Below are positions 15,390-18,925 of a DNA stretch of 32,000 nucleotides, piece by piece. This DNA is from Candidatus Iainarchaeum sp. (GTDB lineage: Archaea; Iainarchaeota; Iainarchaeia; Iainarchaeales; VGJJ01), in contig JAUYHT010000002.1 in the NCBI GenBank assembly GCA_030688545.1, positions 60,001 to 92,000 on the forward strand. Direction: 5' to 3'. A program made the position numbers and the translations under genes. Numbering within the stretch: position 1 is the stretch's first letter; each line of letters begins with the position of its first letter. The notes under the pieces are model-generated. The model was not told where the DNA came from and did no database searches. It saw nothing but the letters and a program-made list of their open reading frames with translations.

Positions 15390-15464
15390 GATTCGATAGA
15401 GCGCATCGGCATTGGCTCATACGGAAAAAGGATGATGATTCCATCAAATTTGTAGAAAAAGTAA

Positions 15465-15477
15465 AGGTTGGAAGCAT
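15465..15477 (+). repeat. Copy A of 13-nt motif AGGTTGGAAGCAT
   Basis: Exact 13-nt identity with 16677-16689. Coordinates were anchored on track ORF 15371..15640 (KVKVGSI). Confidence 0.9.
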
Positions 15478-15887
15478 TCGAATGTCGGGATCTGTTTTTC
15501 CTCTGTGGAAGGATTTTGGGATTCTTTGGAGTTTTTTCCTGAGGGTTTGCCGAAGACTTAGAATTCACCAAAAAATTATGCCGAATAGGAAAGACGGTCC
15601 AGCTTTATCCTCAAATCAAAACTCGGCCCCGTTTGTTTGAGAAAATAGGATTTTGGAACGGGTTGTATTACTATGTAAAAATGCGATTTTTGAGAATGAT
15701 TGGAGAAATATAGTATGAAATACTATAAATGTGGGATGAGAAAGAGGATCCATCTCCCACATTCTACCTTCGCTATGCTTATTTGATTCCACTCCTCTTG
15801 TAAGCGATGCCCAAAAGCGAGATGTATGCACGCTTCAAAAAGGATTGACCGGCTTGGGTACGGCGGTCGTAAATAGGTTTAGAAAAA

Positions 15888-16040
15888 CTATATTTTCTCC
15901 AATAAACGGATAAGGGCTTTGTTTTCTCTCATTACTTTATCAATAATGTGCTCCGCTTCTTCGACCGACATGATTCTACCCTTGAATCTCGATTTTGGTC
16001 GGGAAATACTTGCCGCACGAGCCATTTTTGATGTCTCCAT
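15888..16040 (-). CDS. Small ORF (50 aa) immediately downstream of doc; candidate cognate partner or antitoxin
   Basis: Not in the ORF track (under 60 aa). The ATG at 16040 lies 2 nt after the doc stop (16043-16045) and the TAG at 15888-15890. Translation: METSKMARAASISRPKSRFKGRIMSVEEAEHIIDKVMRENKALIRLLEKI. No family is recognised. Confidence 0.4.
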   Translation of the reverse strand: METSKMARAASISRPKSRFKGRIMSVEEAEHIIDKVMRENKALIRLLEKI

Positions 16041-16042
16041 AG

Positions 16043-16597
16043 TCATATTCCCTCTTTTTCTTTTTTAACACTGTTGTTTGCATGGATAATTCCTTTAAGA
16101 ACTGGATATAATTCTAGCGGTGAATCAAAATTTTTCAAACCCACGGTCCCGCTTAACCCAAAAATAATGGCAACCAATTTGTAAGCGGCGGATTGGGTAT
16201 CTTGACCAAAGGCCAATTTGATGGCAATCAGTGTGTCCTTTCCACTTTCAATGGCCTCATCCAAAATTTTTATTTTTCGTATTTCAGCTTCTTCATTATA
16301 ATCAAATCGAAAGCCATTCTTGTATAAAAATACTGCCACCGCAATGAAGGCAGTCCGCTTATTTCCATCATTGAAACAATGGCCTTTGGTAAAATGAAAA
16401 AGATAATAAGTAGCTACCCAAAATATTTTTTCGGTTCGACTCTTCGGAAATATCCCTGCAAGTTCAGGAAAATCTTCAACGGTGTTAAAAATGAATTCAA
16501 AATTCCCTTTCGAGTTGAATCCCTCTGCTTTCAATTTGATGTCGGAACGAAATCTTCCCACAACTTCACGGGACAAATATATACAATCAAAAGACAC
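16043..16597 (-). CDS. doc: Doc-type Fic-domain toxin (death-on-curing family kinase)
   Basis: 184 aa with a GTG start. The motif HCFNDGNKRTA (aa 73-83) matches the Doc variant HxFx(D/N)(A/G)NKR rather than the AMPylating HxFxxGNGR. The gene is very AT-rich. Confidence 0.8.
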   Translation of the reverse strand: MSFDCIYLSREVVGRFRSDIKLKAEGFNSKGNFEFIFNTVEDFPELAGIFPKSRTEKIFWVATYYLFHFTKGHCFNDGNKRTAFIAVAVFLYKNGFRFDYNEEAEIRKIKILDEAIESGKDTLIAIKLAFGQDTQSAAYKLVAIIFGLSGTVGLKNFDSPLELYPVLKGIIHANNSVKKEKEGI

Positions 16598-16676
16598 GAC
16601 AGCAATGCAAACATTCGAGTTAAAAATCTAGGGAAAGAAAACCGCCGAAGGAATTCTGGCATTAAATAAAAATTTT

Positions 16677-16689
16677 AGGTTGGAAGCAT
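16677..16689 (+). repeat. Copy B of 13-nt motif AGGTTGGAAGCAT (in the 16S 3' trailer)
   Basis: Exact repeat of 15465-15477, 1212 bp away. It is the reverse complement of 18591-18603 over 13 nt when T16676 is included. It is followed by a tandem TGAATAGGC(T)TGAATAGGC at 16711-16729. Confidence 0.9.
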
Positions 16690-16847
16690 ATACGGGTATT
16701 CTTTGCCTTGTGAATAGGCTTGAATAGGCACACGTCATGTTAACTTAGGTTTTTTGTTCACGTCTTAATGGGTTGTGAAAAAGAGGAGAGGATTGCTCCT
16801 GCTCCTGCTTTCTCACACACCTGTGCCCGACATTTGCCGGGCATTTT

Positions 16848-18342
16848 AGGAGGTGATCCGTCCGCAGGTTCCCCTACGGACACCTTGTTACAACTTAGCC
16901 CGCCTCGCGATATCCAGAATCGAACCCGGAATGATTTCCGAGGCCTCATCTAGACATTACTCAGCTGGCTTGATGGGCGGTGTGTGCAAAGCTCAGGGAC
17001 GAATTCACCGCGCGTTAGTGACACGCGATTACTGGGGATTCCAGGCGTTCACGAGGGTGAGTTTCAACCCTCGATCTGAACTGCGGTAGTGGTTAGGGGA
17101 TTACCTTACCCTTTCGGGCTCGGAACTCATTGTCACTACCATTGTAGGCCGCGTGTGGCCCCGGAGATTCGGACTATACAGACCTACTGTGGCCCTCTCC
17201 TTCCTCGGTTTTACAACCGCAGTCGGATTAGAGTGCGCCTCCTCCGTAGAGAAAACTAGCAACTAATCCTGAGGGTCTCGCCCGTTGCCTGAGTTAACAG
17301 GACGCTTCACAGTACGAGCTGCAAGTGGCCATACAGTACCTCTCAGCGTGTCAGGTAAGCCCTTCAGACTGACCATCATCCTGCTGTCACCCCGGGTGAG
17401 TTGTCCGGCGTTGTATCCAATTAAACCGCAGCCTCCACCCCTTGTAGTGAGCTCCCGCCAATTCCTTTAAGTTTCACCCTTGCGAGTGTACTTCCCAGGC
17501 GGTGGACTTAATGCCTTCGCGACGGCACGCGGAGTCCTCGTGGGAAACCGCACACCTAGTCCACATCGTTGAGGGCGGGGACTAACCGGGTATCTAATCC
17601 GGGTCGCTCCCCCCGCTTTCGTTCCTCACCGTCAGGATCATCCTGGTCAAGCGCCTTCGCTACTGGTGGTCCTACGGGCATCACAACATTTCACCGTTAC
17701 CCCCGTAATTCCCTTGACCTCTTATGACCTCGAAGCCCCGCAGTATCCTTAGCCATTGGACGCGTTGGGCGCGCCCTTTTCACCAAGGACTTAGGGAGCC
17801 GGCTACGAACGCTTTAGGCCCAATATACGTGGGTACCACTTAGGGAGTACGTATTACCGCGGCGGCTGGCACGTATCTTACCCCCCCTTTATTCGCCAAA
17901 CTGTTTACATTTGGCAAAAGCCGACAGTGTCGGCACTCGGATGACCCCTATCGCGCTTGCGCGCAGTGTAGAGGTTTCCTAACTGCTGCACCCCTTAGGG
18001 CTGGGGACCTTATCTCAGTTCCCCTCTCCGGGCTACCTCTCTCAAGGCCCGTACCGATCGTCGCCTTGGTGGGCCGTTACCCCGCCAACAAGCTAATCGG
18101 CCGCCGTCCCATCGACGCGCGATTACACCCAGCATGCGGGTGCATCCTATCATCCCTCCCTCGTTCCAGATGGAAGGGACTGCGGCGTATTACCCCCAGT
18201 TTCCCAGGTTTAACGCCTCGCGACGGCAGGTTGACGACGTGTTACTGAGCCGTACGCCAACCGTGGACATAGCTCCACGGATGGACTTGCATGTCTAAGT
18301 GGCAATCCGAATGCAGTACCCGCCAGCAGGATCAGCTGGAAT
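16848..18342 (-). rRNA. rrs: 16S (SSU) ribosomal RNA, archaeal type, about 1495 nt
   Basis: The minus strand starts ATTCCAGCTGATCCTGCTGGCGG and ends GGATCACCTCCT. It contains GTGCCAGCCGCCGCGGTAATAC and ATTAGATACCCGG. The multiple short ORFs across it are artefacts. Confidence 0.95.
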
Positions 18343-18590
18343 GGCACCTTTTTGCAAAAAAGCTGCACCCAAAAGCGTTAGGGGCCCTTTCTTTGGGAAA
18401 GGGACCCAGACTCCATTGGTTACAACGGCAAAAAGATTTTCCCAGAGACAAGCTTTCGAAAAATTTGCCGCGAAAACCCGTTTCTGTATCCTCTAGCGTA
18501 CACCTAATCAACAAGACCTAAAACTCAAAAAAAATTGGTCGTTCCCTTTTTGGAAAAGAAATTTTAATTTGTTTTTTTCCAAAAAAGTTT

Positions 18591-18602
18591 TGCTTCCAAC
18601 CT
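18591..18602 (-). repeat. Copy C (inverted) of the motif, AGGTTGGAAGCA on the minus strand, in the 16S 5' leader
   Basis: The plus strand reads TGCTTCCAACCT at 18591-18602 (then A at 18603). It was anchored on track ORF 18569..18778 (LLPTYL). It lies about 250 nt upstream of the 16S 5' end. Confidence 0.9.
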
Positions 18603-18925
18603 ACCTCATCCCAAAGGCTTTCGCTGATTTTGGGACTCATGTTCCCTCCATGACCCAAAACGGGCCACGTGGAAAGGCATTTGAAGAACCCTTTTGGAAA
18701 AAAGGTTCGGAGGCGGAAAACGCGTGCGACCGACTCAGCGGCCGTGCGTTGAGGAATCCTACCCAAAAAACAGGCTAGGAACCCATAACACTCCTCCCAT
18801 GATAAGGCTTTTAAACGTAGTCCAAAGGTCGAAGCAATTTCACTACCCCCCAGAAGGTCATTGGTGTTCATGAAATACCCTGGAAAAAATCCATAGGGGT
18901 TACTCTTGCTTATCTATTCTCTTCT

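Follow-up and report, generated by a model that had tools for sequence, protein, structure and literature searches.

A Doc toxin cassette probably integrated at the trailer arm of a conserved pre-16S rRNA helix in an Iainarchaeota genome

When integrative elements insert at the 3′ ends of tRNA genes, they restore the gene they have entered. Here we describe a locus in a 32,000-nucleotide stretch of a Candidatus Iainarchaeum sp. genome (assembly GCA_030688545.1, contig JAUYHT010000002.1, positions 60,001 to 92,000; hereafter the window, with coordinates counted from its first nucleotide) in which a 1199-bp cassette encoding a Doc-type toxin lies just downstream of a 16S rRNA gene. We think it probable that this gene has a covarying leader-trailer helix lacking a bulge-helix-bulge (BHB), and that the cassette integrated at the trailer arm of that helix, most likely by recombination of the kind that acts on the core of an attachment (att) site. 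Like the integrative elements at tRNA and tmRNA 3′ ends, which include recombinase-less ones mobilisable in cis, the cassette lies at the 3′ end of a structured-RNA unit and is bounded by short exact direct repeats, with the original 3′ end apparently displaced to the far junction. It likewise seems to carry a replacement-end sequence, has a foreign base composition and corresponds to an empty site in relatives. It differs from them in its target, which is the trailer helix arm of pre-16S rRNA, in a core of only 13 nucleotides (nt), in lacking an integrase, and in being just 1.2 kb long with only a toxin module.

The second point of comparison is the BHB/EndA stem of archaeal pre-rRNA. The helix of the window and its close relatives shares with such stems the flanking complementary segments, the compensatory changes and the joining of the precursor ends, but it has no BHB, is short and far from the mature ends, and is placed by our model within a three-way junction beside a terminator. 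In a survey of archaeal rRNA operons, the unlinked rRNA genes of Thermoplasmata and Nanoarchaeum equitans have no predictable BHB (PMC8339473), and it is this BHB-less minority that the window clade resembles.

The toxin itself shares with the Phd-Doc system of phage P1 the motif H-x-F-x-D-[AG]-N-K-R and sequence similarity to P1 Doc structures. Unlike that system, it has no Phd upstream, and it is accompanied by a conserved small open reading frame (ORF) downstream, which is fused to the toxin in a paralogue.

A trailer-arm sequence is repeated on both sides of the cassette

The 12-mer AGGTTGGAAGCA has three exact matches in the window, at 15465-15476 and 16677-16688 on the plus strand and at 18591-18602 on the minus strand, and allowing one mismatch revealed no others in the 32 kb. 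The expected count is 0.10, and three copies were seen in none of 100 shuffles. The direct repeat extends to 13 nt (AGGTTGGAAGCAT), with copy A at 15465-15477 and copy B at 16677-16689, spaced by 1212 bp; the inverted pair comprises 13 consecutive bp, joining 16676-16688 to 18591-18603. No 23S gene was found in the 32-kb window, so the 16S gene stands there without a linked 23S. The features on which the argument rests are these:

16848 to 18342, minus strand: archaeal 16S rRNA gene (Rfam RF01959, 1330.8 bits, full-length model).
18591 to 18603, minus strand: leader arm (UAGGUUGGAAGCA), 249 nt upstream of the 16S 5′ end.
16676 to 16689, minus strand: copy B, the proximal trailer arm, 159 nt downstream of the 16S 3′ end.
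15465 to 15477, minus strand: copy A, a distal duplicate of the trailer arm, adjoining the apparent original trailer end.
15478 to 16676, minus strand: the insert, 1199 bp, absent from all relatives.
15451 to 15464, minus strand: putative displaced original trailer end and terminator, UUACUUUUUCUACA.

A preliminary description of the window, made from its letters alone, had reported the three motif copies, and we find exact matches at each of its positions. It had also placed the arms about 250 nt (leader) and 160 nt (trailer) from the 16S gene, which agrees with the distances measured from the Rfam bounds, and the doc gene with a small ORF between copies A and B, where we find a Fic/Doc ORF (16043-16597) and a small ORF (15888-16046). 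Its estimate of about 0.01 for the chance that a 13-mer recurs within 1.3 kb was too high; our recomputation gives about 2e-5.

Relatives carry a single arm and no insert

We scanned species-representative genomes with a lineage-specific signature of the 16S 3′ end, which yielded 110 loci (given L numbers below), mostly from Candidatus Iainarchaeum, in keeping with a lineage within the Iainarchaeota (Diapherotrites). The nearest 16S genes are those of L096 (90.3% identity), L105 (89.0%, a complete genome), L009 (88.7%) and L013 (88.2%), all others being at most 81% identical, and these four are the closest relatives having both 16S flanks. A metagenome scan supplied the trailers of further family members, including L120 from Hainich groundwater, whose 16S matches the window at 98.6% of its final 354 nt.

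In the comparison of orthologous rRNA loci that the preliminary description had proposed, the relatives have one arm and no cassette. A single trailer arm is followed by UUUCCC and a T-run, with nothing inserted, in seven distinct relatives (L096, L105, L009, L013, L120, L131 and L133); none of those examined carries both arm copies, and a clean second copy turned up at just one of the 52 rRNA loci in our scan, that of the window. Upstream of copy B, the window aligns with the L120 trailer through GUUAACAUGACGUGUGCC and ACCCGU to the arm. Downstream of copy A the window reads UUACUUUUUCUAC, and after their single arms L120 reads UUUCCCUUAUUUUUUUCUAC and L133 reads ...UUAUUUUUUUCUAC. Likewise, the TTTCCCTTATTTTTTTCTAC that follows the arm in L120 and the ...TTATTTTTTTCTAC of L133 are comparable to the UUACUUUUUCUACA found in the window beyond copy A. 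Joining the window trailer, as far as copy B, to the flank of copy A reconstructs an empty site (junction sequence CCCGTATATGCTTCCAACCTTTACTTTTTCTAC) that aligns with L120 through the arm into TTTTTCTAC. Base composition changes at the same places: the insert has a G+C content of 38.2%, compared with 54.2% in the flank past copy A and 49.7% for the window as a whole, and the shift coincides with the repeats.

The single-arm site of the relatives, the drop in G+C at the repeats and the match of the copy A flank to the relatives' trailer end together argue that the cassette is an insertion, and bear out the first of two readings in the preliminary description, in which a cassette entered the trailer helix element and duplicated its target. 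We conclude from these alignments that the toxin cassette was very probably inserted here, doubling 13 nt of the trailer arm, and that copy A appears to be the displaced original trailer end. A single insertion event duplicating ATGCUUCCAACCU would be the simplest history.

We also considered a duplication longer than the 13-mer, and discarded it because local alignment of the upstream flanks showed similarity between the two junctions, beyond 13 nt, no better than that of shuffles. A near-copy of its own trailer arm in L105 (13 of 14 nt at +1812, or 1092-1105 in the original coordinates, 1662 nt beyond the real arm) was rejected as a parallel insertion; it is most likely due to chance, because it lies inside an intact HsdS-like ORF, in coding sequence rich in lysine and glutamate. 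An arm match of 9 out of 10 nt in L009 was judged in the same way.

Could the arrangement instead come from chance recurrence of the motif, or from a misassembly that joined the cassette to the rRNA locus? We consider this extremely improbable. The source is a metagenome-assembled genome (MAG), contigs break within 16S in the Logan assembly of SRR13727534, and a second MAG (GCA_034375545.1) diverges inside the cassette at 15655. Yet both junctions are found in that Logan assembly, where a single contig runs from a 314-amino-acid (aa) gene through copy A, doc and copy B into 16S; junction A, with 177 nt of the insert, recurs in the second MAG, which is a separate assembly; and neither the absence of three motif copies from all 100 shuffles nor the covariation of the helix, presented below, is what chance would give.

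The contig of the second MAG (L003, JAXMKB010000034.1) is identical to the window for 2489 nt, including copy A and the first part of the insert (15478-15654), and only its last 41 nt diverge. The divergence begins where one arm of a weak inverted repeat ends (15613-15654 with 15884-15925), and the divergent tail was absent from the window, the other loci and IMG/VR. It is a hint that the element varies within the population, and could reflect either a strain variant or an artefact at the contig end.

A covarying leader-trailer helix

In the window and in all four close relatives, the top-scoring complementarity between leader and trailer is the homologue of the window arm pair. The arms of the relatives are as follows:

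L096: leader GGUUGGAAGCAA, trailer UUGCUUCCAACC.
L105: leader AGGUUGAAAGAGAG, trailer CUCUCUUUCAACUU.
L009: leader AGGUCGAGAA, trailer UUCUCGACCU.
L013: leader GGUUGGAAGCAAA, trailer UUUGCUUCCAACU.

In an alignment of these five sequences, 87.7% of cells are paired and 6 of the 13 arm pairs show compensatory changes, a score reached by none of 500 shuffles; sliding the partner strand by one column lowers the pairing to 54-58%. The 13-bp helix is also present in the minimum-free-energy fold of the window leader and trailer. We conclude that the inverted pair very probably marks a genuine RNA helix, conserved and covarying. Across the clade the helix measures 10-14 bp, with the leader arm at -170 to -406 nt and the trailer arm at +135 to +169 nt from the mature ends. 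A second candidate helix in the window, pairing 18517-18496 with 16734-16761, was set aside because it is not reproduced at homologous positions in all relatives.

Three further elements flank the arms or the mature 16S end:

18609 to 18635, minus strand: leader hairpin L1 (UCCCAAA...UUUGGGA), immediately 5′ of the leader arm.
18642 to 18646, minus strand: leader GGGAA block, 5′ of L1.
16824 to 16843, minus strand: hairpin directly 3′ of the mature 16S end (GCCCGG-CAAAUG-UCGGGC).

All seven pairs of L1 are formed in each of the five sequences (100%), two of them with compensatory changes. In the minimum-free-energy folds of L096, L009 and L013, GGGAAA pairs with the UUUCCC directly 3′ of the trailer arm, and UUUCCC followed by a T-run comes after the trailer arm in every relative. 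We picture GGGAAA/UUUCCC as the outer helix of a three-way junction in which the 5′ leader of a stand-alone 16S transcript would be tied to its extreme 3′ end. In such a transcription unit the clade order would be GGGAAA, L1, leader arm, 16S, trailer arm, UUUCCC and T-run terminator, and the ends of the precursor would be clamped by the leader-trailer helix. The hairpin at the 16S 3′ end was examined in eight sequences (window, L096, L105, L013, L120, L131, L133 and L132), in which 98.2% of cells are paired and six of seven pairs are compensatory, a score matched by 0 of 500 shuffles; the conservation of its CAAAUG loop is partly imposed by the search pattern, but the covariation of the stem is not.

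Two other observations concern the leader. The palindromic motif AACUUUUU-n-AAAAAGUU(U/C)AUCAAAA occurs in 16S leaders of the clade (in the window at about 18560-18586 and 18680-18700, minus strand, and in L105, L013 and L009) and also two to three times at the start of a contig carrying a Doc paralogue (L114, 1-90); possible roles are promoter, terminator or binding site. Gene calls on the Logan assembly place a 117-aa gene at 18518-18871 on the minus strand, a region that is 16S leader RNA, and we rejected this call because the relatives keep the nucleotides but have a frameshift (L096) or an in-frame stop (L105).

The window clade lacks the BHB found in other Iainarchaeota

We searched leader against trailer for the BHB geometry, an outer helix, a 4-bp helix, a 3-nt bulge and an inner helix, mirrored on the opposite strand. 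Canonical BHBs with flanking helices of 9-17 bp were recovered in six other Iainarchaeota (L081, L107, which is Ca. Iainarchaeum andersonii, L040, L036, L077, which is AR10, and L067), whereas the same search found no BHB common to the window, L096, L105, L009 and L013. The preliminary description had interpreted the inverted pair as an archaeal processing stem. The stem itself is upheld by compensatory changes in nearly half of its pairs, but a BHB is neither present nor conserved in the clade, and we would class the helix as one that acts like an end-clamping or processing helix while lacking the defining BHB.

The BHB-bearing relatives have a tRNA gene, apparently tRNA-Ala, after 16S, from which we infer linked operons. 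Maturation of 16S rRNA with and without a BHB has thus apparently switched within one phylum, on the evidence of these sequences, and the switch possibly tracks whether the rRNA genes are linked or unlinked. The locus offers a covariation-backed, BHB-less leader-trailer architecture for the unlinked 16S genes of an Iainarchaeota family whose linked-operon sister lineages keep textbook BHB stems.

The only BHB hit involving the arm is a weak one, formed with copy A's flank; it needs G-U pairs and has no counterpart in relatives. It bears on the second reading in the preliminary description, in which copy A is kept so that the leader can pair with it in read-through transcripts, looping out a precursor of 16S plus doc and coupling the toxin to rRNA synthesis. 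Read-through from 16S into doc is possible, since the two genes share an orientation with no more than T5 runs (one at 16668-16672, after copy B) to separate them, and the local duplex of the leader with copy A is no less stable than that with copy B (-28.0 kcal/mol, versus -24.6 for copy B). The BHB-like geometry, which forms with the copy A flank only, relies on G-U pairs and is missing from the relatives, however, and no relative has a second arm with which the leader could pair. The flank of copy A is already accounted for as the displaced original trailer end, copy B is transcribed before copy A, and the identity of the two copies over 13 nt, which would suit retention for pairing, is equally expected from a recent insertion. 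Finally, an A/T-rich, TATA-like stretch right after copy B lies upstream of doc, which would therefore need no read-through. We regard pairing with the distal copy as very unlikely, and return to integration at the trailer arm.

How the cassette may have integrated

We propose that the AT-rich, 1199-bp cassette entered at the 3′ edge of the trailer arm, leaving ATGCTTCCAACCT as direct repeats on both sides. Copy B followed by cassette sequence would be the attL-like junction and the arm now used by the rRNA, and copy A followed by UUACUUUUUCUAC would be the attR-like junction, with the displaced original end. The event itself would have been site-specific recombination across a 13-nt common core, as occurs at tRNA 3′ ends, and the cassette, which lacks a recombinase, would now be either an element that can be mobilised in trans or the remains of one that has decayed. 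The cassette would also have brought its own transcript end:

16622 to 16636, minus strand: UUUCCC and T5 signal UUUCCCUAGAUUUUU, 41 nt after copy B.

This is the only such match in the insert, and L096 has TTTCCCTGATTTTT at the equivalent place. In shuffles the pattern, which was chosen post hoc, occurs anywhere with P = 0.011 and within the first 60 nt with P = 0.0006. The insert-borne UUUCCCUAGAUUUUU may replace the 16S transcript end.

Three features suggest the att-core mechanism, namely how long the identical core is, the missing terminal inverted repeats and the UUUCCC-T5 inside the insert. An exact 13-nt core at both junctions, on the edge of a conserved structured RNA, is the kind of trace that integrase-mediated integration at tRNA 3′ ends leaves. 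Our ranking places site-specific integration first, as the most likely, with target-site duplication in trans and microhomology-mediated capture as alternatives.

In the first of these alternatives a transposase acting in trans would have made a 13-bp target-site duplication around a non-autonomous element; in the second, circular DNA would have been captured through microhomology. The lack of a recombinase in the insert, the short exact repeats and the insignificant similarity of the flanks past the 13-mer are all compatible with such events. Most insertion sequence (IS) families, however, make duplications shorter than 13 bp, and the repeat here is thus longer than those of most. A repeat search and inspection of the insert ends (AAAATTTTTATTT... 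and ...CCCGACATTCGA) found no terminal inverted repeats, the ends not being complementary. Insertion exactly at the edge of a conserved structured RNA, with a signal resembling a trailer end inside, is also more typical of att integration. We therefore judge transposition or illegitimate recombination unlikely, though less so than the other alternatives considered here.

Several observations weigh against integration at an att-like site. There is no integrase or transposase in the insert or among the gene calls about 15 kb to either side. Neither a second copy of the cassette nor, in a search of IMG/VR with a 22-mer, a circular junction was found (predicted junction of the excised circle, CCCGACATTCGAATGCTTCCAACCTAAAATTTTTATTT). 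The homologues of the cassette are alike in coding sequence only, without conserved ends. Synteny downstream of 16S is conserved in no relative; the downstream gene differs in every one of them, and matches to the right flank extend for no more than about 15-20 nt. The UUUCCC-T5 statistic is, as said, post hoc, and the arm covariation comes from five sequences, a modest if consistent depth. A 13-bp duplication by a transposase acting in trans, or microhomology-mediated integration, keeps its place as an alternative to the att-type recombination that we favour.

The locus provides an occupied and an empty example of foreign DNA in a pre-rRNA helix arm, a kind of integration normally seen at tRNA genes. 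It is a single, recombinase-less instance from one uncultured genome, and the mechanism is read from its traces. If the targeting is site-specific, rRNA trailer helices, like tRNA 3′ ends, would count as landing sites for mobile DNA, and having a toxin gene downstream of an rRNA promoter would make for interesting regulation. It is conceivable, if quite doubtful, that DPANN archaea have a class of small cassettes whose attachment site is the 3′ arm of the pre-16S leader-trailer helix, each bringing a replacement end (UUUCCC and a T-run) that keeps the rRNA unit working. On that idea Doc would be parked behind the strongest promoter of the cell, and read-through could tie toxin dosage to rRNA synthesis.

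Contents of the insert and neighbouring genes

The insert and its outer boundary contain the following:

16043 to 16597, minus strand: Doc-type (Fic family) toxin gene, 184 aa, in the same orientation as 16S.
15888 to 16046, minus strand: small partner ORF, 52 aa, overlapping the doc stop codon by 4 nt.
15478 to 15887, minus strand: non-coding tail of the insert, 410 nt, fold z-score -2.33.
14445 to 15389, plus strand: convergent 314-aa gene bounding the locus.

The Doc kinase toxin matches the Pfam family Fic (E = 3.4e-10) and, with its motif in register, structure 3K33 of Doc from phage P1 (E = 3e-6). Its motif, HCFNDGNKR at residues 73-81, fits HxFxD(A/G)NKR, and the NCBI annotation of the product is death-on-curing family toxin. 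No ORF, and with it no upstream antitoxin gene of the Phd/YefM type, lies between copy B and doc. Pfam yielded nothing significant for the small ORF. On a JGI contig (L115), a Doc homologue with 48% identity is followed by an ORF to which the small ORF is 46% identical, and the small ORF is also 35% identical to the C-terminus of P0003, a 222-aa fused Doc paralogue from the window's own genome. These similarities mark it as a conserved partner of Doc rather than a Phd, and it may be an antitoxin or a detachable, split-off C-terminal domain.

An 11-nt direct repeat around the Doc homologue of L115 was dismissed as a sign of insertion, because about one is expected by chance in 3 kb (a rough estimate) and two other exact 11-mers are repeated at the same locus. 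Viral contigs yielded just one weak, partial match among relatives of Doc. A permissive Rfam search of 15300-16900 returned nothing but the 16S end, leaving the non-coding tail without a match, and no relatives of the 314-aa flanking protein were found in the species-representative genomes or in a set of 5.8 billion proteins.

The paralogue P0003 (L114, 235-903), a second Doc-family gene 41% identical to the first, carries a fused small-ORF homologue and is 1.7 kb away from an RNase P RNA gene (L114, 2601-2847); both Doc copies are thus near genes for structural RNAs. Elsewhere in the window, at 28543-29064 on the plus strand, a DUF3368 protein, which we take to be PIN-like, is preceded by small ORFs, an arrangement that resembles another toxin-antitoxin-like pair.

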